DNA of 64,000 nucleotides, from assembly GCA_964019425.1 (NCBI GenBank), contig OZ025804.1, positions 248,001-312,000 on the forward strand. The letters are read 5' to 3'. The stretch is from Flectonema sp. DT1601 (Eukaryota). Made by a program: the position numbers and the translations under genes. The notes beneath the pieces were generated by a model, which was given only the letters and a program-made list of their open reading frames with translations, made no database searches and was not told where the DNA came from. Positions 4,692-64,000 of this stretch are shown here, in pieces; within the stretch, counting starts at the first letter, position 1; each line of letters starts with the position of its first letter.

Positions 4692-7481
4692 ATGACGGGA
4701 AATGCTGCGGTCCGCGTTATGGTACGCGTGAGGCCGTTTAATCAGAGGGAGTCATCGAGTGGTCCTGTGATTAGCATGACTGAATGTAATACAACCGTGT
4801 ATGATCCAAATAATGAATTTAAAGTCAAGGATTCATTTGGTTATGATAAATGTTTATGGAGCACTCTATCTGATAAAATGAAATCAAAAAGTCTCATTCC
4901 TAAAACTGAAATCACAAGTGCTGATCAAGAATACGTTTATCAATGTGTTGGTCCTGAGATTCTTGCAAGCATGTGGGATGGATATAATACGTGTCTGTTT
5001 GCGTATGGACAAACTGGTTCGGGAAAGACATACACAATGATGGGAGATATTTATAATAAAACTAACCGGGGAGTTATTCCAAGACTGTGTGAAGAGATGT
5101 TTTCAAGAATTAAAAAAGAACAATCGGAAACACCCACGCTATCATTCAAAGTTGACGCCTCGTATCATGAAATCTATAACGAAAAAGTTATCGATTTATT
5201 AGATAAATCTCAAAATCAACTCAGAGTACGTCAGCATCCTTTAAACGGCCCTTTCGTTGAAGGATTATCAACTCATCAGGTTAATGACGTCGCTGGCATT
5301 TTCAGTTTATTGAGAAGAGGTGGATCAGAAAGGTCTACTGCAACAACTAATCTGAATGACAATAGCAGTCGATCTCATGCGATCTTCACACTAACAATAA
5401 CAAGATTAACAATTAGTGGACAAGTCATCGATACCATACAAACTCGTACTCGAGTGTCAAAAGTTAATTTAGTCGATCTCGCAGGGTCTGAACGTGTTGC
5501 CAGCTCTGGCGTCCACGGAGATCGTTTCGAAGAAGCAAGAAATATAAACCTGTCACTAACAACTCTCGGAAGGGTAATCGATTGTCTAGTTGAGAGGTCA
5601 GAAAAGAAATATGGAGGTAAGCTACCCCCCTACAGAGAATCAGCTCTCACGTGGCTTTTATCTGACTCACTTGGTGGTAACAGCAAAACCTTTATGATAG
5701 CAACCATCAGTCCAAGTAGTACAAACTTTAATGAAACACTCAGCACACTTAGATATTCATCAAAGGCTCGTCATATTATTAATAAGGCGACGGTTAACAA
5801 GGAAGAAGAGTCTGGGAAACTCACGGCTGAATTACGTGAAAAAATTTCAACTTTGCATAACAGACTACGAACAAAAGAAAAACATTGGTCATCCGTCAAC
5901 GAGTCTCTAGAAGAACGCTGCATCGCAGCAGAAACAGAAGTTGAAGCACTCAGAAACTACATAACATCTTTAGAAGCGAAGCTTGGCTCTCATGGGAAAT
6001 TCAGACAAAGCGATGGAGAAATAGAACGAATTTCAAAGAATCTCAAAGAAGAAAGATCAAAATCCAGGAGATTAGAAAAACAAGTTCGTCGCTTGGAGCA
6101 GCAACTCGACGTTTCGAAATTTAATTTCGACCAGGAAATGAAAGAACTAACACACCAACTAAAGAATGAAGGTCTCAGATTGAAGGAATATCACGCAGAG
6201 TTAGAATCAAAAGAAGATGAAGTTAGGAAGCTATTCGACGAACAAGACAGAACAACATCAGAAAGAGATCTGCTACTCGAACAGCTACAACGACTTGAAT
6301 CTGAACACCAACACAATCTCTCAGTCAGAGAAGCAGAAAAAGAAAAATCCCATCGCATCAACGTCCTCCGTAAAATAACTAGAGATCAGGAAGCTGCGAA
6401 GGACAAAGCTGAAACGACATTGAAAGTTGTGGAATCGGAGAATCAGAATTTATCTCAGAAGGTTGTTCATCTACAGCGAGAACTACGAGTCTCAATGGAT
6501 GCTAATAATCAATTACAAGATGCATCGGAAGCCTCTAAAAAGATGGAAACCGAAACCAGAGGAGATCTCACCAAAACTATCTCAGATCTTCAATCGCAAC
6601 TATCAACCGCAAAGAGTGAAGTCGACGCATCAAAGCAAGTTAGAATTTCACTGTCGACCATGCAATCGGAGTTGGTGGCTGCCAAGACTGATTCTCTAGC
6701 GAGAGAACAACACTTTCGCAATGAAATTGATGGAATGAATGTACAAATAGAAACACATCAGAGAGCGAAACAAGTCTCAGAAAACCAATTAAAGATGGAA
6801 AAATCCAATTTAAAGAAACTACGTCAAACAATTATCCACGATAAAGAAATAACAACAAATATGGTACAGCAAGTATCGTCATTGGAAACGGAACGATCTT
6901 CGTTAAGAGAGAGAGTCACCGCTCTACAGCATCGGATAGAACGCGTTCCTGAAAATGAAAGTAAATTAGAAGATAAGATACAACTACTCACAAATAAGTG
7001 TAATGACCTTCAGGGTGAACTTAATCTCAAAGAAGAAGGTTCAGTGGTTGAGACTGCTCTTGTAACTACGAATAAAAGTTTAAGAGAAAAATTACATCGA
7101 CAAAAATTAATAATTGAAAAATTGCAAGCAGAACTATCCTGCAGCTTAGGACTGAATACGATCAATAAATTATTTGAAGAGCAGGCTCACGACATTGAGA
7201 AGCTAACAAAATACCACGACAAAACTGAGCAAAAAGTAAATGTAGTGACTTCGTCTTTGAATGATGCTGTTTTAAAAAATATTGATACTTTTAAAAAAGA
7301 AATGTCTACAGACATCCAACAACGTACTGAAGGATTGAATAAAGTATGCCATCACATATCTTCTTTATTAACCGGTGATGTGAGTAAAAACAACAACAAC
7401 AGCAAAAACAACAACACAAAACAGGTCTGTGACAATACAAAACTTCTTGAAGAAGCATTTCTAAACCAAAGACGACTCTAG
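4692..7481 (+). CDS. Kinesin (kinesin-3/Unc104-like motor) with long coiled-coil tail
   Basis: VRVRPFN, P-loop GQTGSGKT, NSSRSHA, LVDLAGSE, PYRES and LGGNSKT motifs; heptad-rich C-terminus. Confidence 0.95.
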   Translation: MTGNAAVRVMVRVRPFNQRESSSGPVISMTECNTTVYDPNNEFKVKDSFGYDKCLWSTLSDKMKSKSLIPKTEITSADQEYVYQCVGPEILASMWDGYNTCLFAYGQTGSGKTYTMMGDIYNKTNRGVIPRLCEEMFSRIKKEQSETPTLSFKVDASYHEIYNEKVIDLLDKSQNQLRVRQHPLNGPFVEGLSTHQVNDVAGIFSLLRRGGSERSTATTNLNDNSSRSHAIFTLTITRLTISGQVIDTIQTRTRVSKVNLVDLAGSERVASSGVHGDRFEEARNINLSLTTLGRVIDCLVERSEKKYGGKLPPYRESALTWLLSDSLGGNSKTFMIATISPSSTNFNETLSTLRYSSKARHIINKATVNKEEESGKLTAELREKISTLHNRLRTKEKHWSSVNESLEERCIAAETEVEALRNYITSLEAKLGSHGKFRQSDGEIERISKNLKEERSKSRRLEKQVRRLEQQLDVSKFNFDQEMKELTHQLKNEGLRLKEYHAELESKEDEVRKLFDEQDRTTSERDLLLEQLQRLESEHQHNLSVREAEKEKSHRINVLRKITRDQEAAKDKAETTLKVVESENQNLSQKVVHLQRELRVSMDANNQLQDASEASKKMETETRGDLTKTISDLQSQLSTAKSEVDASKQVRISLSTMQSELVAAKTDSLAREQHFRNEIDGMNVQIETHQRAKQVSENQLKMEKSNLKKLRQTIIHDKEITTNMVQQVSSLETERSSLRERVTALQHRIERVPENESKLEDKIQLLTNKCNDLQGELNLKEEGSVVETALVTTNKSLREKLHRQKLIIEKLQAELSCSLGLNTINKLFEEQAHDIEKLTKYHDKTEQKVNVVTSSLNDAVLKNIDTFKKEMSTDIQQRTEGLNKVCHHISSLLTGDVSKNNNNSKNNNTKQVCDNTKLLEEAFLNQRRL

Positions 7482-32445: not shown

Positions 32446-32938
32446 AAATAAATTACACCCTTTTTTTTTTTTTTTTTTTTTTTTGTTATTATCCTGTAAG
32501 TTAAACATTTATTTACCCATGAAATCTGAACGTGCCAGTTCTTTTTTTTTTTCCCCTAAAGTTCATGTTTTAATATTCTTTTTCCCCCTACTCATATTCG
32601 ACAGGATTGAAAAAGAGATGTGTATGCAGCTAAGTTAGAAACATTTATTGTAATGTAAAGTATTTACGTCAATTGCAGAGTGTATACCTACACTAACATT
32701 ACCCTTTAGTCAACATGTATCTATGAATTAATGTTAAATTATCGTTATATTCCTCTGTGATCCAATACAATTGTATTTATAGCCCTCTTCACTTCTCATT
32801 ATTCGACAACACGTATGGAGTTGTAAAGTAACCGAGTGGTTTACTCAAATACTAGTTTTGGTTTTAACCAGTTTCATTCAGTTTAAGTTACTTCTACTTA
32901 GCATCAAAAAAAAAAACAACAACACATAAGACTCAACA

Positions 32939-34254: not shown

Positions 34255-35165
34255 TTGACCTCTCAGCTAGCAATAATGTGAGAGGAGGGGGAAGCTCCCC
34301 TCAATGAGTTTCGATGAGTAATAATAAGGTGAACCGAATCTAACTTCACAAGCCTCTTCCAACTTTTTCTTGAGCGAAAAGTAAGGAAATTAAGAATTTA
34401 TTATGAATATGGCCTTAGCGTTGTTTTCCGATGTTTCTCTAAATAATTAATACCCCCGTCGCCAATATTAGATTTTAAGCCCAATTTAAAAAAAAAAAAA
34501 AAAAAAATGCAGCACTTTTTTTTTTTTTTTTTTTCCCCCTCTCTCCTCCTTTTCATAAGTTAGTTTAAGTAGTGCATTGATACTACAATTAATTCTTATC
34601 GTTGGATTCCTTTTTTTTGCTTTGAATACTTTTTTTTTTTTTCATTACAAATTAGGAATCAAAATAAACAAGAGAGAAAACTATTGATCGATTTTGTGAG
34701 ATATCATATAAAAACGGAAGAAAAATGATACCTTACTACGCAGTGTAAAATAACTAAATATGTTTCTAGCCTTCGCTTGGCAATGAGATTTTACGTTTAA
34801 GATTTCTTTTTTGAAAAGCGAAAGTACAACTAGCTGTTAACTGACTACTGTCTACACCACTCAACACATTTACCTGGCTGTGCCCAATTGTGTCCTATGC
34901 ACTACATCTCTCTATACATTGAATCAAAGGGGTGGGTTATTAACCTTTTTTCCTCTACGTCGTATGCAGTGTTTACCTTTGGTGCAGTACAGATTTTTAT
35001 TTCTTCATAAATGTGTTGGAACATTTCAATCTCTTCTTCCCCCTTTTTTTTTGTAGTTTAACCCTTATTGCATATTTTTGTATTATAAAGTTTATTACTG
35101 TTTTCTACATCGTTAACGTATCACCCCGGAATGGAATCCAGAACTTTTCTCATCCGATCCCTGAA

Positions 35166-35490
35166 TTGGGGATTGCGATCCACCGAAACAGTATTTCGGC
35201 ACTTTAGAAGTCTTTAAAAACACTCAAAAGGTTTAGACCGCGTGGTACCTGAGGGGTGAACACAAGAGGTGTGTTAGGAGGGCTCACAAAAGTTATTAGT
35301 AATTCCGTGCATTGAGCAATCCATAATCAGGTTTCCCTCTGAGAGATAAAAAGGGAGCTGAACCTTTGTTTTTAGTGACCTGATTTGAACCTTAATAATA
35401 TGCTCCACTAGACTGACCTGTTAATTCCTCCATGTTCGATGTTTAGGCTACTGGCCTTCTCATATGAGCTCCCACTGTGCTCAGCTTCGG
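35166..35490 (-). mobile_element. Diverged inverted remnant of the 2-kb inverted-repeat element seen at 56-62 kb
   Basis: Reverse complement matches ~57712-58048 (e.g. AATTCCGTGCATTGAGCAATCCATAA, TTTGAACCTTAATAATATGCTCCAC). Confidence 0.85.
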
Positions 35491-35493
35491 AGT

Positions 35494-35538
35494 GCTAGAG
35501 GAAGCAAAAGTCGTAACAAGGTTGCTGTAGGTGAACCT
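35494..35538 (+). pseudogene. Fragment of the SSU (18S) rRNA 3' end
   Basis: AGAGGAAGCAAAAGTCGTAACAAGGTTGCTGTAGGTGAACCT matches the conserved helix 44/45 region with euglenozoan-type variants; flanks are not rRNA. Confidence 0.9.
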
Positions 35539-35947
35539 CAATTTTAATTACTCTGCCAGAAATATCGACTTGTACTTAGGGACGTTGATCCTGTGAGTAC
35601 TATCCTTGAATGCAAACATGTGCGATGTCGTTCCGAGTCGACTCAGAAACTGATACGGAACTTGTCACCGCAATCACTGTGTTGTTTAGCTAAAGTGAGC
35701 TACTGTTTGTTTTTGATTTGTCTGTTGCTTCTTTTAAAGCGAACCTTAATTATCACTTTTTACTTAACAGCGAAGATGACATTATCAGAACCCCCAGTGG
35801 CATTTAATCTCAACAGGTTGGGACCATATTGTGCAACAAAAAAAACAGAAAGTCTGTTTGAAGAAATTTGTTTTTGCACGTTCTTTAATCTCATCATACT
35901 CCAAGCCATTCATCATCACATTTCGTAGGTTACTCAGGCGAGTTAAA

Positions 35948-37423
35948 ATGCAACTCTCGGTTACGTTCCCAGACACAGGGTTTCCTGACGTTGTTTTCAC
36001 AGCTTCTGGAGAGTCGCGCGTGAAGGATGCATTGCAGGTTGCAGCTGATGAGTGGGGTACCGATGCTGACTTTCTTGAGCTTTCATTCGCAGGATCGCTG
36101 CTTCGAGCAGGTAGTCGACTGGTGTCGCACGGAGTGGAGGACGGCTCGCTGTTGGATGCATCTGTGGTGCGCTTGTTTGGATTGGAATGGTTCACAGATG
36201 ATGCAAAGAGAGCGAAGGCATTCCTACGAGGAGAACGGGATCAGGACGGGTTTTTCTGCCTTGATACTCCCACATTCGCTGTGGATGGCTGTCTTCAGTT
36301 TAGTAACAGAAAGTGGTTCTCGGATGATGTTACGAACCTCTCATTCAGCAACTCTGAACCCTCAGTCACGACCGTTTCGGATGATTTCTTATTCTCATCT
36401 CATAAGGTTATAAAGGTCAGTCTGCCTGGTCTTCAATACGTCACATCTGTTGGTAATAATTTCCTCAGAGATTGCAATTCACTGTTATCTGTAGACTTAT
36501 CAAGTCTCAGCAATGTGTCAGTTGTTGGTGACTATTTTCTTAGTGATTGTTCATCCCTCACATTTGTTAATTTATCAGGTCTCAGCAATGTTTCAGTTGT
36601 TGGAGGCTCTTTTCTAAGAAATTGTTCATCCCTCACATCTGTTAACTTATCAAGTCTCAGCAATGTTTTAGTTGTTGGAGACTATTTTCTTAGCGATTGT
36701 TCATCCCTCACATCTGTTGACTTATCAGGTCTCAGCAATGTTTCGGTTGTTGGAGACTATTTTCTCAGTGCTTGTTCATCCCTCACATCTGTTGACTTAT
36801 CAAGTCTCAGCAACGTTTCAGTTGTTGGAGACTCTTTTTTACATAATTGTTCATCCCTCACATCTGTTGACTTATCAAGTCTCAGCAACGTTTCAGTTGT
36901 TGGAAATTATTTTCTATATTGTTGTTCATCCCTCACATCTGTTAACTTATCAAGTCTCAGCAATGTTTCAGTTATTGGAGACTATTTTTTATATTATTGT
37001 TCATCCCTCACATCTGTCGACTTATCAAGTCTCAGCAATGTTTCAGTTGTTGGAAGCTCTTTTCTAAATAATTGTTCATTACTCACATCTGTTAACTTAC
37101 CAAGTCTCAGCAATGTTTCAGCTGTTGGAGACTATTTTCTATGTAATTGTTCATCCCTCACATCTGTTAACTTGTCAAGTCTCAGCAATGTTTCAGCTAT
37201 TAGAGACTGTTTTCTAAGTAATTGTTCGTCTCTAACATCTGTAAACTTATCAAGTCTCAGCAATGTTTCAGTTGTTGGAAACTTTTTTCTAAGTAATTGT
37301 TCATCACTTACTTCCTTGGATTTAACCCTCGTGAATGTGGAATCCGTTGGAAGTAATTTCCTAGAAGGTTGTTCATCCATTAACAGAGACGAACTGCATA
37401 CGAGCATAAGGAATTTGGAATGA
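35948..37423 (+). CDS. Ubiquitin-like domain plus BspA-like/TpLRR leucine-rich repeat protein, copy 1 (11 near-identical 25-aa units)
   Basis: N-terminal Ubl-like region; 75-bp tandem units encoding LSSLSNVSVVGxxFLxxCSSLTSVD. Confidence 0.85.
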   Translation: MQLSVTFPDTGFPDVVFTASGESRVKDALQVAADEWGTDADFLELSFAGSLLRAGSRLVSHGVEDGSLLDASVVRLFGLEWFTDDAKRAKAFLRGERDQDGFFCLDTPTFAVDGCLQFSNRKWFSDDVTNLSFSNSEPSVTTVSDDFLFSSHKVIKVSLPGLQYVTSVGNNFLRDCNSLLSVDLSSLSNVSVVGDYFLSDCSSLTFVNLSGLSNVSVVGGSFLRNCSSLTSVNLSSLSNVLVVGDYFLSDCSSLTSVDLSGLSNVSVVGDYFLSACSSLTSVDLSSLSNVSVVGDSFLHNCSSLTSVDLSSLSNVSVVGNYFLYCCSSLTSVNLSSLSNVSVIGDYFLYYCSSLTSVDLSSLSNVSVVGSSFLNNCSLLTSVNLPSLSNVSAVGDYFLCNCSSLTSVNLSSLSNVSAIRDCFLSNCSSLTSVNLSSLSNVSVVGNFFLSNCSSLTSLDLTLVNVESVGSNFLEGCSSINRDELHTSIRNLE

Positions 37424-39722
37424 CATAAATCACATAAGTGTTGTTTTTAGTGTGTGTGCGTTGTTCCCTTTGTTTTATTTGAAAGTATTTAATTTATCTT
37501 TTATTTGATGGTGTTTTCAGAAAAGAAGATGTGTGTTCGCTCACACACTCTTAACAAGTGTTTGTTAGTTGGAATTGAATGTTTGATTGCATTGCAGTGT
37601 TCTTATTCCCTTGACTGGGTCATATTCTATCAGACTCCCAACCCCATTTGGTATTCCCACCCGCTCTTCCCCTATCATTTCGTATCGTATCAAACTTCTC
37701 CCTCGTGTCAAACTTCTCCCCGCCAGTGTCCGATCGAATCGAAACGGGCCTGGCACAATCCCTGCGTGTGGAAGTAATCTGCACCCATCCACAGTGTAGA
37801 TACTTCTTTGTGTTGATCTCAGCTTGTTTAGTTAATGCCTTATTCTCTTATCATATTTCCTTCTCAGGTGCAAACAGTGATGGAAAGCTTATTACCGAAA
37901 TCTTCTCTTTTGTAAACCTTTAAGTAGACTTTAATATAGTATTCTGAAAAGGAAGAGTTTTAGAATTAACTGTCATCTGGCTTACCGACTAAAACATCCT
38001 AGTCTCAGCAGGATGTAATTAGGATCTTAGTAGAGAACATCTTATATTGGAGTTACACAGCTGTGTTACATAGTTCACGTTATGTTTTCATTAGTCACTA
38101 TACCTCGACATTAAAAGGTATTTTAATGACAATTTCCTCCTCCTCGATTGGCGCAGCCATTCATTTTGATCATTTAGTTAGTTTTTCACAAGCAATGGTG
38201 TGAATAAAGAAACAATGCAATCTTTGTTGTCAGACATATCGTTGATGGTGACTCGGCCTACTAACTGAAATATGCAATAGCCTTAGCAAGATGTAATTAG
38301 GACCCAAATAATTAACATAAATGCGATCGAAATAGAACAGTCACCTCCACTAAAACGATAAACAACGACCGTGTTATTTATATAAAAGAGATAATTGTAA
38401 ACATTCCTCCTTGAAATGTGGTGATCAATTGAAAAAAAAAGAAAAGTACAAACGTTAGGAATGCCTTACTGAATTCACTGTTCACAACATGAAATGACAC
38501 AAGAACTCCATAAAGCAAGTTGACAGTTTTACCGACAAAGTCACTAAATTATGTCGGGCACTGCTAAAAGTGTAAGATAGGATAAAGCTAAAATCTTAAA
38601 TGGATGGTTGAATTTGAATTGAACTTAGGAAGGGAAACAGTAAAATGCATTGTAACTTTTGTAATAATAATATTCCACAAACTACTTTTTAGTGTCACAG
38701 TGGGACAGTCTTCATCATCAGTTGTTTGCAACTAATCAGAAATATGACTACGGAAGAACGGTGTCGAAAGAAAGACAATTCAGCAGTACTACAAGGTCAA
38801 CTGAAGGGGATGACCTATAGAATCTGTTGCTTTGATAAGAGAGTTGGGTATGCGAAATTAAAGAAGAAATGACAACACATTGGTAACGTCATTTGAAATT
38901 GCCAAGCAAATCGATTATTAAAAAGTGTAAATCGATAATCTCTGACGACACTCGAATTACTGATCAATTATATCAGCATCAGGTATCACAATGGCATATT
39001 CAAAACAGAAGAATTCTATAAATAATTTAGGGGAACATTGATAATCAATTTCAGTATCATTTCATACAAAAAGGGTCTAACAACTCGGTTGGTATTCAAC
39101 AAAGATGACAATCACGAGTGTCGCATGTTGATCTGTTGTACAGAAGGCGGATTCCACTTTCCAATAACAGAAAAATAACAAGAAAAAGGAAACCCAAAGT
39201 TTGTTTCTCAAAAGGAATGATTGACGAAAATCCGATACTGCCGACGACACTACGAAAGATGTGAAGTTCAAAAGGAACAGAAGTCAGAAGAGTCTGAAGA
39301 TATCTCTTAACCTAAGTTATGATTCCCAAATAGGATTATTGGTATGAAGAATTCCCAACTACAATGCACACGCAGCTAGCGGAAGGACTTCATAGTTAAT
39401 ACGGTATTCTACATTTTCGAACTCTAATTCAAACTTGTCACCGCAATCACTGTGTTGTTTAGCTGAAGTAAGTCAGCCGCTGTTTGCTTTTGATTTGTCT
39501 GTTTCATCTTTTAAAGCGAACATTAATTATCACTTTTTACTTAACAGCGAAGATGACATTATCAGAACCCCCAGTGGCATTTAATCTCAATAGGTTGAGA
39601 CTAAATTATGCAACAAAAAAAAGAAAGTCTATTTGAAGAAATTTGTTTTTGCACGTTCTTTAATCTCATCATACTCCAAGCCATTCATCATCACATTTCG
39701 TAGGTTACTCAGGCGAGTTAAA

Positions 39723-40892
39723 ATGCAACTCTCGGTTACGTTCCCAGACACAGGGTTTCCTGACGTTGTTTTCACAGCTTCTGGAGAGTCGCTCGTGAAG
39801 GATGCATTGCAGGTTGCAGCTGATGAGTGGGGTACCGATGCTGACTTTCTTGAGCTTTCATTCGCAGGATCGCTGCTTCGAGCAGGTAGTCGACTGGTGT
39901 CGCACGGAGTGGAGGACGGCTCGCTGTTGGATGCATCTGTGGTGCGCTTGTTTGGATTGGAATGGTTCACAGATGATGCAAAGAGAGCGAAGGCATTCCT
40001 ACGAGAACGGGATCAGGACGGGTTTTTCTGCCTTGATACTCCCACATTCGCTGTGGATGGCTGTCTTCAGTTTAGTAACAGAAAGTGGTTCTCGGATGAT
40101 GTTACGAACATCTCATTCAGCAACTCTGAACCCTCAGTCACGACCGTTTCGGATGATTTCTTATACTCATCTTGTAAGGTTATAAAGGTCAGTCTGCCTG
40201 GTCTTCAATACGTCACATCTGTTGGAATTAATTTCCTCAAACATTGCTATTCACTGTCATCCGTAGACTTATCAAGTCTCAGCAATATTTCAGTTGTTGG
40301 AGACTATTTTCTAAGTAATTGTTCATCCCTCACATCTCTGGACTTGTCAAGTCTCAGCAATGTTTTAGCTGTTAGAGACTCATTTCTATATAATTGTTCA
40401 TCCCTCACATCTCTGGACTTAAGTCTCAGCAATGTTTTAGCTGTTGGAAATTATTTTCTAAGTAATTGTTCATCCCTCACATCTGTTGACTTATCAAGTC
40501 TGAACAATGTTTCAGTTGTTGGAGATTGTTTTCTAAGTAATTGTTCATCCCTCACTTCTGTTGACTTATCAGGTCTCAGCAATGTTTCAGTTGTTGGAAA
40601 TTATTTTCTGTATGCTTGTCTGTCCCTCACATCTGTTGACTTATCAAGTCTCAGCAATGTTTCAGTTGTTGGAGATTGTTTTCTAAGTGATTGTTCATCC
40701 CTCACATCTCTGGACTTATCAAGTCTCAGCAATTCTTCAACTGTTGGAGACTGTTTTCTATTTAATTGTTCATCACTTACTTCCTTGGATTTAACCCTCG
40801 TGAATGTGGAATCCGTTGGAAGAAATTTCCTAGAAGGTTGTTCATCCATTAACAGAGACGAACTGCATACGAGCATAAGGAATTTGAAATGA
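39723..40892 (+). CDS. Ubl-LRR protein, copy 2 (7 units)
   Basis: Near-identical N- and C-termini to copy 1 with four fewer repeat units. Confidence 0.85.
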   Translation: MQLSVTFPDTGFPDVVFTASGESLVKDALQVAADEWGTDADFLELSFAGSLLRAGSRLVSHGVEDGSLLDASVVRLFGLEWFTDDAKRAKAFLRERDQDGFFCLDTPTFAVDGCLQFSNRKWFSDDVTNISFSNSEPSVTTVSDDFLYSSCKVIKVSLPGLQYVTSVGINFLKHCYSLSSVDLSSLSNISVVGDYFLSNCSSLTSLDLSSLSNVLAVRDSFLYNCSSLTSLDLSLSNVLAVGNYFLSNCSSLTSVDLSSLNNVSVVGDCFLSNCSSLTSVDLSGLSNVSVVGNYFLYACLSLTSVDLSSLSNVSVVGDCFLSDCSSLTSLDLSSLSNSSTVGDCFLFNCSSLTSLDLTLVNVESVGRNFLEGCSSINRDELHTSIRNLK

Positions 40893-41800
40893 CATAAATC
40901 ACATCAGTGTTGTTTTTAGTGTGTGCGTTGTTCCCTTTGTTTTATTGCAAAGTATTTAATTTATCTTTTATTTGTTGGTGTTTTCAGAAAAGAAGATGTG
41001 TGTTCGCTCACACACTCTTAACAAGTGTTTGTTAGTTGGAATTGAATATTTGATTGCATTGCAGTGTTCTTATTCCCTTGACTAGGTCATATTCTATCAG
41101 ACTCCCAACCCCATTTGGTATTCCCACCCGCTCTTCCCCTATCATTTCGTATCGTATCAAACGTCCCCCCGCCAGTGTCCGATCGAATCGAAACGGGCCT
41201 GACACATTCCCTGCTCGAGTGGAAGTAATCTGCACCCATCCACAGTGTAGATACTTCTTTGTGTTGATCTCAGCTTGTTTAGTTAATGCCTTATTCTCTT
41301 ATCATATTTCCTTCTCAGGTGCAAACAGTGATGGAAAGCGAATTACCGAAATCTTCTCTTTTGAGAACCTTTTGAAACTCTTTTACTGTGCCGCGTCACC
41401 GCAATCACTGTGTTGTTTAGCTAAAGTCAGCCACTGTTTGTTTTTTGATTTGTCTGTTTCATCTTTTAAAGCGAAACTTAATTATCATTTTTTACTTAAT
41501 AGCGAATCTGCTTGTTTAGGTTAGTTCCGGGTCCAGCAAGCGAAGCCTTGTCAATGCCAAGGTGACCCTTTGAAGGGTCTACTGTTCGCACGGGTACATG
41601 TAGTTCTGTGTTTGGAAACTTGTTTGTGATCTATTCCTGCATACCTTTTAATAATCGCATCATTTTCGTCAGGTGTTCCCCAGGTATACTTTTGCATTGT
41701 TAGTGATTAGATATTGTGTGTACAATTAGTTGATCTTCTGTGAAACGTGTCTCTTTGTTTTTTATTTTTCACTCACACCCAGATCACTACTTACAAAAAA

Positions 41801-56169: not shown

Positions 56170-58161
56170 GGGGGGGGGGGGGGGGGTAGGGGGGGGTACA
56201 AGCTGTCGATAAAGTACTTTTTCCGAATTTTGGTAAATATAACCTTCCCGGGGGCAAAAAATACCCAGGACCCCATCAGAACCCCCAAAAATGTGATTTC
56301 GGGGCCGAAAAAACCTCGATTTGGCTGATTTCGGCAAAGGAATGAAAAATCTCAAAAAGTGTGGACCGTGTGGTACTTGGGGGTCCAATTTTGAGGCCTG
56401 TGAAATGCACCTTCAAATAATTTTTTTTTACAATGAGAAGAGGTGACCTTAGTGTGTCCCCGTGCACGCAGTGTGCTAATATACCATTTCCGTATCAGTT
56501 CCTGCTTCAAGAACACGCCACGAAAAAGAGTAGCACTCTCGAGCGGCCATGCTTGAGGCCACGAGGCTCACGGGCAGGATAACGCAGCGGAAAACGACGT
56601 TCTGCAGGGCAGCTCACAAAGTCATTCTGCGGAGGAGAGCATTGATCCCAGAGTGCATGAAAACACCTCCCGAGGCATCCCTGAAGTCACTCAACAGCAC
56701 TTGGACAGTCAGAAACAGGATACGCGTGAGAAAGGGGTTCAAAAAACGTCCAGTATCTGCGTCGTGATCACAGAAGGCTCAGAGAATAGAGAAAGCGCCA
56801 CGTCTGTACCCCAAACAGGGATAAGCCTCAAGACAGCTGTAGTGGTAGTGCCTCAAATAGTAGTGCCATAGATAAGCAGCAGCGACATAGGGCAACATGC
56901 TCCATCCAAAAAGCCGTTCAAGGCATCACTTAAGACCCAACCATGCTCACTAGCAGGGCATACAAGACACTCCAGTACATGCAGCATACGAAGAAGTACG
57001 GAAGACACATCCGCTTGCAACTGTACCCAAACGAGGGGGATATACTCCTGGAGTCTTGGAGTCGTAACAACACTGCAGATATTGCGGCAAGAAGGGATCG
57101 GCGCAGAGACATCCAACTAAGTCCTGAGTGAGTGTCATAGTTGAAGCTGTCGCAGGTGCGCAGACAGAAGGGAAGCGGGTCGAAGTCACCAATTATATCT
57201 CGAAGGACAGTCCGACTTGTTGATGAATTCACAGGTGATCTGTCGGTGACCTGACTTCTTGAAGCAGCAGCTTCCTCCTCACCCTCCGTCACATCGCTGC
57301 AGCATGATACTTCCTCTAGTGCCCGTCGTGCTCGTGGGATGAAGCTAACAACCGTTGTGTTCGTTGTCATCCCGCACCCCTCAAGGGATGGGGAGGTTAT
57401 TCAGTGTTGTTGATAGTTCTTGGTCAACTGACAGAACCGGTGGCGTGAATGCTGCCCTACTGATAATGTACAACATATTCCAGAGGCACATGGGCTTCCA
57501 AAGGCTACCACATCAACGCAGGACCACCAACCCTCTTCAGATTGGCAAGAACAAGCACAACAGGAGGCGCTATAGGGGCTGAACGTACCACCCCGTCCTC
57601 ACGGGGAAGCCCTCTAGACAGCAAGGTCTAATGCAAATCTGCCATCTGCATCCAAGGATTGGTCCTCCGTCTATCTTGTACAGAAAGAAGCACAGCTTGG
57701 GGCCAAATTTCGAAAGCTGAGCACATGGGATGTTCAAGAGAAGGCCAGTAGCCTAAGCATCGAAGATGGGGGAATTAACAAGCCCGGTCTGGTGGAGCAT
57801 ATTATTAAGGTTCAAATCAGGCCGATAAAAATAAAAATTGGGTTCCCATTTCATTCCCTACTCAACTCAGAGGGAAACCCTGGTTATGGATTGCTCAATG
57901 CACGGAATTACTTGTAATTTTTGTGAGCCCTCCTAACACACCCCTTGTTTTCACCCCCCTCAGGTACCACACGGTCCACACTTTTTGAGATTTTTCAAAG
58001 ACTTGCTCTAAAGTGCCGAAGAACTGTTTCTTTGGATCGCAATCCCCATTTTTGGGGTATATGTTGCAGTTTTCATAATTTGGGTGCCCAAAAAACTTGT
58101 TCTCCGGAAAAAAACCGAAAGTGCCCAAAATCTCCGTAAAATCGATGCTTGTACCCCCCCC
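56170..58161. mobile_element. ~2-kb non-autonomous inverted-repeat element, copy A
   Basis: Ends G(n)TAG(8)TACAAGC ... GCTTGTAC(8). Subterminal inverted repeat AATCTCAAAAAGTGTGGACCGTGTGGTAC / GTACCACACGGTCCACACTTTTTGAGATT. No intact ORF. Confidence 0.8.
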
Positions 58162-58196
58162 TTGTAACTGTTACAAAAGATGAGACAGAAACTCAT

Positions 58197-58616
58197 ATGT
58201 TATCTATCAAAAAGAATGGCAAGTTGGCAACACAAACGGTCGCTGATGAACCAGAGAGAAGCAGTAACAAGAGACTGAACTCACAGAGTCCAATGCGAAT
58301 TGTGAGAATCAAAAAATACCTGAGCAACCGGAAAAGGCTTAAAAATGAGTGTACTGAACATAAGTTGGCACAGAAAATGAAACTTAAAGAAGTACAAAAA
58401 CAGAAATTAGCAAAGGGAAAGGAAAAGAAGAAACTGAAATTGGTAAAAAGACTCAACTCGCAGAGTCCAATGAGACCGATGCTCAGAAGAAATACTCGAA
58501 AGAAAAGAAGCAAACAAGATGAACATGATTCTTCAGATGATATGAGTATTTCACAGAGATCTTCAACTCCAGATATCCCTGATGCTAAGGAACAATTATC
58601 AGACTTTGATAATTAA
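58197..58616 (+). other. Lys/Arg-rich ORF fragment upstream of hammerhead copy 3 (possible 3' end of a mobile-element ORF)
   Basis: Open frame with internal duplication KRLNSQSPMR; 5' end abuts element copy A. No family can be assigned by eye. Confidence 0.35.
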
Positions 58617-58776
58617 AAACACTTTCTACATTTATTGTAGAAAAGTGCTCCACTAGTAGTGAGCTACGAACTAGTAACAGCAAAAAATATGTTTTTTTTA
58701 TTTATGAACATGAAACACAAAGTAACTACATTCCAGTCCTGCAAACTGGAATGACTCAGTCTCAACATTTGACTGA

Positions 58777-58843
58777 CTTACTTCTACACCATACTGATGA
58801 GAGAGAATAGAGGTAAGAGGTATATGGATTACTCTCGAAACCT
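58777..58843 (+). ncRNA. Non-circularly permuted hammerhead ribozyme, copy 3 (predicted cleavage after A58822)
   Basis: Extra helix CUUACUUCUA/UAGAGGUAAG, stem I CCAUA/UAUGG, CUGAUGA 58794-800, stem II GAGAG/CUCUC, GAAA 58837-40, stem III AGGU/ACCU, GUA triplet. Confidence 0.85.
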
Positions 58844-59034
58844 ATAGTTACTTTAATATGCTAAGTTGCGCATCACCCTTAGTCACTGTATTTAAAACTA
58901 ATGTTAAATTATCTTTATGTTTTTATGATACAACACAGTTGTAATTTTTACAAAATCGAACATACATCCCCCCTAGGGGGGGGGGGGGGACCTTTGATAC
59001 GATACGATACAAGACCTTTGATACGATACGATAC

Positions 59035-60647
59035 GGTACAAGCTGTCGATAAAGTACTTTTTCCGAATTTTAAATATAACCTTCCCGGGGGCAAAAATTA
59101 CCCAGAACCCCACCAGAACCCCCAAAAATGTGATTTCGGGGCCGAAAAAACCTCGATTTGGCTGATTTCGGCAAAGGAATGAAAAATCTCAAAAAGTGTG
59201 GACCGTGTGGTACCTGGGGTCCAATTTTGAGGCCTGTGAAATGCACCTTCAAATAATTTTTTTTTACAATGAGAAGAGGTGAGTCTTGGTGTGCCCCCGT
59301 ATGCGCAGTTTGCTAATATACCATTTCCGTATCAGTTTCCACCTCAAGAACACGCCACGAAAGAGAGCAGCGCTCTCGCCCGGCCATGCTTGAGGTCACG
59401 AGGCTCACGGGCAGGATAACGCAGCTGAAAACGATGTTCTGCAGGGCAGCTCACAAAGTCATTCTGAAAGCGCCACGTCTGTACCCCAAACAGGGATAAG
59501 CCTGAAGACAGCTGTAGTGGTAGTGCCTCAAATAGTAGTGCCATAGATAAGCAGCAGCGACATAGGGCAACATGCCCCATCCAAAAAGCCGTTCAAGGCA
59601 TCACTTCAGAAGACCCAACCATACTCACCGGCAGGGCATACAAGACACTCTAGTGCATGCAGCATTCGAAGAAGTACGGAAGAGACATCCGCTTGCAACT
59701 GTACCCAAGCGAGGGGGATTTACTCCTAGAGTCTTGGAGTCGTAACTGCACTGCAGATATTGCGGCAAGAAGGGATCGGCGCAGAGAGATCCAACAAAGT
59801 CCTGAGTGAGTGGCACAGTTGACGTCGCCGGTGCACAGACAGAAGGGAAGCGGGTCGAAGTCCCCGACTATATCTCGAAGGGCAGTCCGACATGTTGATG
59901 GATTCACAGGTGATCTGTCAGTGACCTGACTTCTTGAAGCAGCAGCTTCCTCCTCACCCTCCGTCACATCGCTGCAGCATGATACTTCCTCTAGTGCCCG
60001 TCATGCTCGTGGGCTGAAGCTAACAACCGTGGCGTTCGTTGTCATCCTGCACCCCTCAAGGAATGGGGAGGTTATTCAGTGTGTTGTTGTTGATAGTTCT
60101 TAGTCAACTAACGGAACCATTGGAGTGAGGGCTGCCCTACTGATAACGTACAACATATTCCAGAGGTACACGGACTTCCAAAGGCTACCGCATCAACGCA
60201 GGACCACCAACCCTCTTCAGATTGGCAAGAACAAGCACAACAGGAAGCGCTACAGGGGCTGAAAGTACCACTCCGTCCTCACAGGGAAGACCTCTAGACA
60301 GCAAGGCCTAATGCTAATCTGCCATCCGCATCCAAGGATTGGTCCTCTGTCTATCTTGTACAGAAAGAAGCACAGCTTCGAGCCGAATTTCGAAAGCTGA
60401 GCACATGGGATGTTCAAGAGAAGGCCAGTAGCCTAAGCATCGAAGATGGGGGAATTAACGACCCGGGTCTGGTGGAGCATATTATTAAGGTTCAAGATGG
60501 GTCGCAATCCCCATTTTTGGGGTATATGTTGTACTTTTCATAATTTGGGTGCCCAAAAAACTTGTTCTCCGGGAAAAAACCGAAAGTGCCCAAAATCTCC
60601 GTAAAATCGATGCTTGTACCCCCCCCTACCCCCCCCCCCCCCCCCCC
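59035..60647. mobile_element. Inverted-repeat element, copy B (two internal deletions)
   Basis: Collinear with copy A but lacks segments near 59467 and 60496; ends GCTTGTAC(8)TAC(n). Confidence 0.8.
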
Positions 60648-60649
60648 TA

Positions 60650-62639
60650 GGGGGGGGTACAAGCTGTCGATAAAGTACTTTTTCCGAATTTTGGTAAATA
60701 TAACCTTCCCGGGGGCAAAAAATACCCAGGACCCCATCAGAACCCCCAAAAATGTGATTTCGGGGCCGAAAAAACCTCGATTTGGCTGATTTCGGCAAAG
60801 GAATGAAAAATCTCAAAAAGTGTGGACCGTGTGGTACCTGGGGGTCCAATTTTGAGGCCTGTGAAATGCACCTTCAAATAATTTTTTTTTACAATGAGAA
60901 GAGGTGAGTCTTGGTGTGTCCCTGTGCACGCAGTGTGCTAATATACCATTTCCGTATCAGTTTCCGCTTCAAGAACACGCCACGAAAAAGAGCATCGCTC
61001 TCGCCCGGCCATGCTTGAGGTCACGAGGCTCACGGGCAGGATAACGCAGCTGAAAACGATGTTCTGCAGGGCAACTCACAAAGTCATTCTGCGGAGGAGA
61101 GCATTGATCCCAGAGTGCATGAAAACACCTCCCGAGACATCCCTGAAGTCACTCAACAGCACTTGGACAGTCAGAAGCAAGATACGCGTGAGAAAGGGGT
61201 CCAAAAACGTCCAGTATCTGAATCGTGATCACAGAAGGCTCACAGAATAAACAAAGCGCTACGTCTGTACCCCAAACAGGGATAAGCCTCAAGACAGCTG
61301 TAGTGGTAGTGCCTCAAATAGCAGTGCCATAGATAAGCAGCAGCGACATAGGCCAACATGCCCCATCCAAAAAGCCGTTCAAGGCATCACTTAAGACCCA
61401 ACCATACTCACCAGCAAGGCATACAAGACACTCCAGTACATGCGGCATACGAAGAAGTACGAAAGACACACCCGCTTGCAACTGTACCCGAACGAGGGGG
61501 ATATACTCCTGGAGTCTTGGAGTCGTAACTACACTGCAGATATTGCGGCAAGAAGGGATCGGCGCAGAGAGATCCAACTAAGTCCTGAGTGAGGGACATA
61601 GTTGAAGCTATCGTAGGTGCGCAGACAGAAGGGAAGCGGGTCGAAGTCACCAACTATATCTTGAAGGACAGTCCGACTTGTTGATGGATTCACAGGTGAT
61701 CTGTCGGTGACCTGACTTCTTGAAGCAGCAGCTTCCTCCTCACCCTCCGTCACATCGCTGCAGCATGATACTTCCTCTAGTGCCCGTCGTGCTCGTGGGA
61801 TGAAGCTAACAACCGTTGTGTTCGTTGTCATCCTGCACCCCTCAAGGGATGGGGAGGTTATTCAGTGTTGTTGATAGTTCTTAGTCAACTGATGGAACCA
61901 GTGGCGTGAATGCTGCCCTACTGATAACGTACAATATATTCCAGAGGCATACGGGCTTCCAAAGGCTACCACATCAACGCAGGACCACCGACCCTCTTCA
62001 GATTGGCAAGAACAAGCATAACAGGAGGCGCCACAGGGGCTGAACGTACCACTCCGTCCTCACGGGGAAGACCTCTAGACAGCAAGGCCTAATGCTAATC
62101 TGCCATCCGCATCCAAGGATTGGTCCTCTGTCTATCTTGTACAGAAAGAAGCACAGCTTCGGGCCGAATTTCGAAACCTGAGCACATGGGATGTTCAAGA
62201 GAAGGCCAGTAGCCTAAACATCGGACATGGGGGAATTAACACGCCGGGTCTCGTGTAGCATATAATTAAGGTTCAAATCAGGTCGATAAAAATAAAAATT
62301 GAGTTCCCTTTTCATCCCCCACTCAACTCAGAGGGAAACCCTGGTTATGGATTGCTCAATGCACGGAATTACTTATAATTTTTGCGAGCCCTCCTAACAC
62401 ACCCCTTGTTTTCACCCCCCTCAGGTACCACACGGTCCACACTTTTTGAGATTTTTCAAAGACTTGCTCTAAAGTGCCGAAGAACTGTTTCTTTGGATCG
62501 CAATCCCCATTTTTGGGGTATATGTTGCAGTTTTCATAATTTGGGTGCCCAAAAAACTTGTTCTCCGGAAAAAAACCGAAAGTGCCCAAAATCTCCGTAA
62601 AATCGATGCTTGTACCCCCCCCTACCCCCCCCCCCCCCC
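60650..62639. mobile_element. Inverted-repeat element, copy C
   Basis: Full-length collinear copy joined to copy B through a CCCCCCTAGGGGGG palindrome. Confidence 0.8.
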
Positions 62640-64000
62640 TCACAGCTGAAACATCCATATTAGGTGTAGGGGCCCACATGTGGTGGGGAAGATATCTCCT
62701 CCTTCGTTGTGGGGATGCACGTGCTCTAAGTTCCAGCACACTGGCATTGCCAAGTGAGTCTTCCTTCATGTCTTGCCCCCTTGCCCAATCCACCAGGTCG
62801 AAACTTGTCATTGGCGTTGCCTGTTCCAGTGGTATTGCCGCTCCATTCGCCCTCAGTGCTGCAGCTAAGCTCAACAGAGGTCCGTTTTCTATTCCGATTC
62901 TCCCCATCTCTCCTGTTTCTCTGTCTGAATTTGCTTCCATCTCCCTTCCGGGGGATCCTCGGGCTGCAGGTTTTATATTGTTGTCCGGGCCTGAACTTAT
63001 GGATCTTCTTAACCTTGTTCGTAGTCGGCCGTCCTTCAATACCTGTTTTGAGCGCTTCTGCATAAGTCTTGCTGGTTTCCTTAAATACTTCAACCTTGGT
63101 AATGGGAGTGTTTCTAATACTTGCATATTCCTGTACTCTAACCTTCGTCTTGGGAGTGCTGTTGTTACTTGCAGGGTCTGGTCGGCTGGTCACTTCGCGA
63201 ACCCTCTCCTGTTTCCCAATGCTGGGTATGTGGAAACAGACACCTTCCCCCCTTTCCATTTTGGTTGCTGCAGCTTCACATGTTTGTTCCTCTTAGCTAT
63301 GGCGTTTGCCTTCTCCAACGGGTCTTCCGATGCCACTTTCATTATCATCTCCAGCTCGGATCTCTTCGTCCCATCCTTGCAGAAGTAATGCTGAATCCGC
63401 AGCTGCTCCAACAAAACCTAGCTCTACGAAGTGGGGGTTTTCTTCCCACACGCTACTACATATTCGAACCCGAGTATAAAGTTTTTCAATTGCTTGAAAT
63501 AACTGAGAAGTTGGCTTCCCCCAACTTTGTATTCGAGGCTGTTAACATACCTCTCTCTGATCCCGTGTGCCGTCCTTCCCGAACTCATTACTGCTGCCCA
63601 TCTTTTTACATCTCTGGCTGCAGATGGGTCGGTCACCTCCTGTGTTGCTTCTTCTTCTTCCGTCTTTGGTGCTTGAGGTACTGCTACTGGCCCTTGCTGA
63701 GTTGTGGTAGACCTCTTCTTCAGACCCGCTAATTCCTGCATGATACCTTGTATCACGGCTGCCTGTTGTTCCTGATGGGCCTGCTGTTGTTGATTGATAC
63801 TCTGGAACAATGCTGTATTCTGGTCCTGCTGATCTTGTTGTTGCTGTTGTAGAACCTGTTGCTCTTTGAATGCTTCCCACATGCCCCCGATGTTCTCAGC
63901 TTTCTCGGCGTGTGTTTGATCACTGGCACTCACACAGTCTCAACAGGTGTTTGATAACTGCGATTGAATGTAAACCTTTTAGTTTTGAAATGTCTGTCTG

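Follow-up and report, generated by a model that had tools for sequence, protein, structure and literature searches.

Six block orders of the hammerhead ribozyme have been named by Eckert, Friedrich, Weinberg and Weinberg in 2023 (PMC10085705), of which CGS, GSC and SCG correspond to types I–III and SGC, CSG and GCS are non-circular. According to the available parts of that report, type CSG comprises two similar sequences, called CSG-1 and CSG-2, from soil-metagenome DNA only, which cleave at the predicted site in vitro at 0.004 and 0.026 per min. The published structure line of type CSG already includes a fourth (‘strut’) helix, and the authors rated the evidence for biological relevance of type CSG as weaker than that for type SGC. 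The sources of rearranged hammerheads given in the same parts are metatranscriptomes, soil metagenomes and one bacterium, which corrects an earlier note on the DNA studied here, where vertebrate genomes had been given as the source (Weinberg laboratory).

The host element described below calls for comparison with self-cleaving RNAs of mobile elements, here given as far as the available sections of the respective papers go. In Chlamys Penelope-like elements, 5′ truncation is frequent and both partial tandems and (C)n targets have been described, and most Naiad and Chlamys elements were reported without canonical hammerheads (PMC8557442). Cleavage was dispensable for insertion of one Penelope-like element in vitro, and 0 RNA-seq reads started at the cut (PMC11167929). 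In trypanosomes, ribozyme activity has been proposed to release L1Tc from polycistronic RNA (PMC6765202), and long groups of diplonemid genes are likely transcribed together (PMC10161547).

Here we analyse a DNA stretch of 64,000 nucleotides (the window) that contains a type CSG hammerhead fold at 58777–58843. In our reading, to which we assign a probability of about 0.6, this fold is predicted to self-cleave and forms part of the 3′ tail of a multi-copy element from a likely diplonemid; the element is likely a retroelement, either Penelope-like or a non-autonomous derivative. The host assignment follows from two genes: the window encodes a kinetoplastid-type flagellar calcium-binding protein, and the nearest matches of a NudC fragment are unnamed transcriptome proteins and Diplonema papillatum (57%). 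Together, these similarities indicate that the host is a eukaryote and likely a diplonemid, in agreement with the euglenozoan origin presumed earlier.

Since block order and strut were published by Eckert et al. in 2023, neither is new at this locus; the architecture itself is real, very rare and already described. What is new is its occurrence in a eukaryotic host, with a new scaffold and in a mobile setting. The literature searched for later work on type CSG or non-circular hammerheads, which included the available part of PMC13725137, contained no eukaryotic type CSG ribozyme. As the earlier note had suspected, it also contained no diplonemid or euglenozoan hammerhead (available parts of PMC3088659, PMC6155905 and PMC6765202 included); in both cases, most subscription journals lay outside the coverage.

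Architecture of the ribozyme fold

The fold is composed of the following parts.

58777..58843, plus strand: type CSG hammerhead ribozyme fold, strut helix and core (descriptor scan, core-letter check, topology as in CSG-1 and CSG-2)
58777..58786, plus strand: strut helix, 5′ strand, pairing with 58808–58817 (10 bp, one G-U)
58808..58817, plus strand: strut helix, 3′ strand, abutting stem III with zero linker
58789..58800, plus strand: block C, first part, with the stem I 5′ strand (58789–93) and the CUGAUGA box (58794–800)
58801..58805, plus strand: stem II 5′ strand, pairing with 58832–36; a U is inserted directly ahead of it in relatives
58818..58827, plus strand: block S, with the stem III 5′ strand, the GUA triplet including A58822 and the stem I 3′ strand
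58832..58843, plus strand: block G, with the stem II 3′ strand, GAA (58837–39) and the stem III 3′ strand

From 5′ to 3′, the blocks run C, S, G, which is the order that defines type CSG; the cleavage strand thus lies between the CUGAUGA and GAAA strands, as the earlier note had described, and the fold follows none of the circular orders CGS, GSC and SCG of types I–III. Stem I (58789–93/58823–27) and stem II (58801–05/58832–36) each consist of 5 pairs and stem III (58818–21/58840–43) of 4, all Watson–Crick, so that the complete core and three stems claimed for this site were reproduced. The core letters C3 U4 G5 A6 N7 G8 A9 and G12 A13 A14 are all in place, the G10.1-C11.1 and A15.1-U16.1 pairs are present, H17 is A58822 and not G, and stems I–III lie in register with the core. 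We regard 58777–58843 as almost certainly a real CSG fold. By likeness to the tested CSG-1 and CSG-2, cleavage is predicted 3′ of A58822 in the GUA triplet, the same position that had been proposed before, and we expect with good confidence that the RNA would cleave in vitro.

The strut joins the strand 5′ of stem I to the strand between stems II and III. Folding of the tail gave each of its pairs a probability of 0.92–1.0, which supports the earlier suggestion that this 10-bp extra helix may serve as a folding scaffold. Both stem I and stem II are short, and each is weak on its own (−3.2 and −4.9 kcal/mol). The nested folding energy of the 67-nt ribozyme by itself is not unusual (z between −0.7 and −0.9), as expected for a pseudoknotted fold.

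Like CSG-1 and CSG-2, as presented in the available parts of PMC10085705, the locus was found in DNA and combines the C-S-G order with a complete core and with a 5′ helix closing off block C and linking stems I and II. The loop under the strut measures 21 nt against 18 nt in CSG-1/2, and the loop under stem III 18 nt against 20 nt (both by eye). The strut is 10 bp long instead of 8 bp, stems I and III are each one pair shorter, and the linkers from the strut to stems I, II and III measure 2, 2 and 0 nt, compared with 0, 0 and 2 nt. Set against CSG-1 by eye, 9 of the 14 core-stem pairs have other letters in both strands and remain Watson–Crick, a comparison that does not imply homology. CSG-1/2 lie on short soil-metagenome contigs and their cleavage has been assayed in vitro, whereas the present fold is predicted to cleave and is set in a predicted five-way junction and a multi-copy element of an identifiable eukaryote. 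An example of unrelated sequence that shares the four helices and is kept among copies of a eukaryotic element strengthens the CSG class, and its biological role becomes testable in culturable protists.

Standard models had been expected to miss such an RNA. Indeed, Rfam matched nothing anywhere in the window when the gathering score was applied, and at E ≤ 5 the region 54500–64000 showed no ribozyme family. The published CSG descriptor, in the form available from the source, also fails on 58777–58843, where stem III is a pair too short and one linker, at 12 nt, exceeds the maximum of 10. Genomes may therefore contain more rearranged hammerheads than have been counted, which bears on the report, in the part of that paper available, that Naiad and Chlamys lack canonical hammerheads (PMC8557442).

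We used a descriptor covering all six block orders with stems of at least 4 bp. Run across the window, it gave two matches, 58777–58843 and one in type I order on the minus strand. The latter (5177–5283) was rejected as a chance match: it is sprawling, lies inside a kinesin-like reading frame and requires a long insertion. A model null was built from an order-3 Markov chain with planted core (2,800,000 trials). Stems of 5/5/4 pairs arose in 26 trials when G-U was allowed and in 0 when all pairs had to be Watson–Crick; 5/5/4 stems with a strut of at least 8 bp arose once, or ~2 × 10⁻⁵ per window as a rough figure from one event, and a 10-bp strut in none of the 2,800,000.

For an empirical null, we collected 313 loci with the core words in C-S-G order from viral, metagenome and prokaryote collections. 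At least 120 came from a scan of viral contigs, a further 43, 13, 7 and 31 from four scans of viral contigs with the third pair of stem III fixed, 80 from metagenome contigs and 19 from prokaryote genomes. Among the matches listed, all three stems reached at least 4 bp in 0 of the 313 loci, so that the viral, metagenome and prokaryote scans yielded no further CSG member of this kind; stems of 3/3/3 occurred in three, two of them on one contig. The metagenome and prokaryote patterns fixed stem III as in 58777–58843 and therefore leave room for other CSG members.

Predicted five-way junction and conservation among copies

Three further features surround the ribozyme, all from folding of the tail.

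58719..58854, plus strand: predicted five-way junction of P0, P1, P2, strut and stem III
58729..58753, plus strand: hairpin P1, 9 bp
58756..58776, plus strand: hairpin P2, 6 bp

The closing helix P0 (58719–28/58845–54) consists of 10 Watson–Crick bp. The 136-nt junction domain folds with a z of −4.8, and 0 of 500 shuffles were as good, with the borders having been picked after the fold was seen. In the proposed folding path, a nested five-way junction of P0, P1, P2, the strut and stem III would come first. Next, the loop of the strut, which holds block C, would pair with the stem III loop, which holds block S and the stem II 3′ strand, giving stems I and II; this pairing between loops would complete an ordinary hammerhead core. 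This step is a prediction, and nested folding programs cannot score the loop–loop pairing of stems I and II. The earlier note had recognized the hammerhead, its order and its scaffold, and had missed the five-way junction and the mobile-element setting. Two more hairpins are predicted immediately 3′ of the stop codon of the adjoining gene, at 58622–58675.

Related copies of the tail, which had been named as a test of the ribozyme, were found in three public runs, X1–X3. The comparison draws on contigs only, with a depth of 2–9 over the tail (3–6 for the two main contigs), and the runs cover parts of the stretch only, with shares of 0.09–0.12. A 367-nt contig from X2, a marine metatranscriptome, matches 58557–58921 with 18 substitutions and two indels; 13 of the 18 substitutions were placed, and 0 of these 13 fall in the 67-nt ribozyme. 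A 119-nt contig from X1 matches 58727–58844 with 8 substitutions, of which the 4 placed are all in P2; the single change in its ribozyme is a U inserted after A9. These distributions correspond to P ~0.015 (X2) and ~0.004 (X1), on the premises that flanks are neutral and that the unplaced substitutions (5 of 18 and 4 of 8) lie near contig ends, as suggested by the listing pattern and by overlapping identical contigs. Over both contigs, 15 of 17 placed substitutions fall in none of the seven helices, and the other 2 convert G-C to G-U; in one relative, three changes occur in the P2 loop and one G-C pair of P2 has become G-U.

In the parts of the sources available, the site of the U insertion is allowed by the published CSG descriptor (PMC10085705), and natural hammerheads with an unpaired letter on the 5′ side of stem II have been described (PMC4209133). 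The CUGAUGA box with the same U is also present in a third, more diverged contig, which has one extra letter ahead of the core and ends at the box; its P1, aligned by eye in a loose contig end, contains two compensated and two broken pairs. Among the contigs from X1–X3, no compensatory change was seen in stems I–III or the strut, so that relatives support the ribozyme by conservation and not by covariation. The X2 contig, the sole contig from an RNA library, spans the cut site uncut. Assembled contigs do not reveal where RNAs end.

The host element and its tail

The element around the ribozyme is outlined by the following features.

58162..58616, plus strand: 3′ part of an orphan reading frame, multi-copy and 5′-truncated (homology to database proteins)
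58162..58967, plus strand: putative element copy, truncated gene and 351-nt tail, outlined from copies
58154..58161, plus strand: C8 run marking the 5′ junction, where the adjoining 2-kb repeat ends
58968..58973, plus strand: C6 run at the 3′ end, where the X1 and X3 copies end too
58871..58946, plus strand: shared tail motif, matching window positions 32697–32778 (77%) and contigs in X2 and X3

The predicted cut site lies on the sense strand, 206 nt 3′ of the stop codon and 145 nt 5′ of the C6 run. One database protein is identical to the gene over 150 residues and extends 92 residues further upstream; this upstream part is absent from the window, where homology begins directly after the C8 run. 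The gene belongs to a cluster of 6 near-identical members on 7 contigs, with a sister family, 47% identical, of 15 members of up to 753 residues. Full gene copies carry a C-x2-C-x9-H-x3-C motif. Pfam returned no family at a meaningful E-value for the gene or its relatives, and no reverse transcriptase, endonuclease or GIY-YIG domain was found in the window fragment or in relatives of up to 753 aa. An Atlas search of the gene gave matches that were unnamed or below 0.9, a weak test found no longer relative, and structure prediction reached a mean pLDDT of 42, with no usable model. Among viral contigs the gene had no relative, and the tail had no meaningful phage match.

The three copies that reach the 3′ end all stop at the C6 run and are followed by differing DNA. 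In one X1 junction, the element 3′ end leads back to 58858 via 14 letters; no pseudo-LTR or partial tandem arrangement was found within the window. Tails that are 93–100% alike occur in runs in which most of the gene is not covered. We considered a minus-strand LTR whose polypurine tract would be the G run and dropped it, as an X2 contig continues past the supposed LTR end into the gene. A relic at 32640–32780, just upstream of the NudC gene, has the tail motif in common (77% over 82 nt) and lacks the ribozyme; it was rejected as a second ribozyme copy because it shares the downstream motif only.

The element resembles Penelope-like elements, as described in the available parts of the sources, in its hammerhead near the 3′ end and its 5′ truncation (PMC4209133, PMC8557442, PMC11167929, bioRxiv 10.64898/2026.07.22.740005), and Chlamys in (C)n at its insertion sites and a hint of partial tandem tails (PMC8557442). 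The hammerhead near the 3′ end, the 5′ truncation and the microsatellite target are traits of that group, and none is exclusive to it. Since C/G runs also lie directly beside the neighbouring repeats that have inverted ends, the likeness to Chlamys is a resemblance and not membership. By contrast, the hammerheads described from Penelope-like elements in the same four sources are type I or minimal, whereas the present one is type CSG, and the Penelope-like hallmarks of reverse transcriptase, GIY-YIG domain and pseudo-LTR were not found in gene, relatives or window. The literature searched contained no Penelope-like element from diplonemids. A more distant parallel, drawn from the available parts of PMC6765202 and PMC12278014, is trypanosome L1Tc, likewise a euglenozoan mobile element with a self-cleaving-RNA class and a proposed release from polycistrons; its ribozyme is HDV-like and at the 5′ end of a LINE, whereas here a permuted hammerhead fold lies in a 3′ tail.

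Readings of the element and its surroundings

On balance, we favour a retroelement as the owner of the tail; that it is Penelope-like is a tentative assignment, somewhat short of an even chance. With no reverse transcriptase found and cleavage only predicted, we infer this retroelement reading, and its Penelope-like form, from the traits above. Element RNA embedded in long transcripts, whether read-through or tandem, would be freed by the predicted cut. Stems I, II, III and P0, 24 bp in all, would keep hold of the 3′ product, and because these still join the products, religation or circle formation is plausible, which would explain why genomic copies keep 145 nt past the cut. In its most specific and more doubtful form, diplonemids would carry an undescribed Penelope-like family in which a CSG hammerhead, caged in a five-way junction, cuts the RNA and rejoins or circularises it. 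If this is true, non-circularly permuted hammerheads gain a eukaryotic home and a function, and retroelements reported as hammerhead-less would be suggested to hold rearranged ones that standard descriptors miss.

An unlikely alternative places an active CSG ribozyme in the 3′ untranslated region of a gene on another mobile element, such as a non-LTR element, a tyrosine-recombinase element or a DNA transposon, where it would determine the 3′ end of the mRNA or reduce mRNA lifetime instead of processing a transposition template. The sense-strand location past the stop codon agrees with this, as does the lack of a reverse transcriptase in the gene or its relatives, and C/G runs beside the inverted-end repeats mean that the C6 end is not retroelement-specific. 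However, the near-identity of tails in runs where the gene is mostly uncovered suggests that the tail moves and is kept apart from the gene, and the X1 junction links the 3′ end to the tail interior. Improbable, in our view, is a hammerhead-like fold that cleaves poorly or never alone and acts as a structural or protein-binding signal in the element RNA. The slow rates of the published CSG ribozymes (PMC10085705, in its available parts), the insertion without cleavage and without reads beginning at the cut seen for a Penelope-like element (PMC11167929, likewise) and the X2 contig intact across the site would all fit such a signal; against it, all catalytic letters are kept, and the U after A9 is the sole ribozyme change in relatives. 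Chance arrangement of the core words in a young repeat has in its favour that very many windows were scanned and that the copies are few and closely related. It is nevertheless very improbable, given that all-Watson–Crick stems never arose in the Markov trials, that no core-word locus among the matches listed had three stems of at least 4 bp and that substitutions in relatives avoid the ribozyme.

The element adjoins a 2-kb repeat present in three copies, 93–96% alike (56187–58162, 59035–60640 and 60648–62623), of which the middle one is internally deleted. The repeat has 14-bp G-rich inverted ends, subterminal inverted repeats of ~110 nt and no long reading frame, and its copies are bordered by runs of C, TA and G; on the minus strand, 35164–35487 is a diverged partial copy. 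The repeat resembles a non-autonomous DNA transposon. A second repeat terminus, ending in a G run and with short GATAC repeats, occurs at 56135–56175, 58968–59030 and 41145–41173 and has matches in X1 and X2 contigs. The minus strand of 62640–63940 carries a glutamine-rich reading frame that is frameshifted and has a degenerate cysteine motif; by eye it is gag-like, and Pfam gave no family for it at a meaningful E-value.

Short stretches at 55870–56010 and ~35490–35540 resemble what we take to be large- and small-subunit rRNA. The former matches 638 plasmid records at ~75%, without annotation. Scattered 28S pieces have been reported from Diplonema papillatum, in the part of the paper available (PMC10161547). 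Just ahead of the rRNA-like stretch, 55752–55865 is a 56-nt tandem duplication, 98% alike. Two near-identical genes of 75-nt (25-residue) leucine-rich-looking repeats lie at 35780–37423 and 39594–40892.
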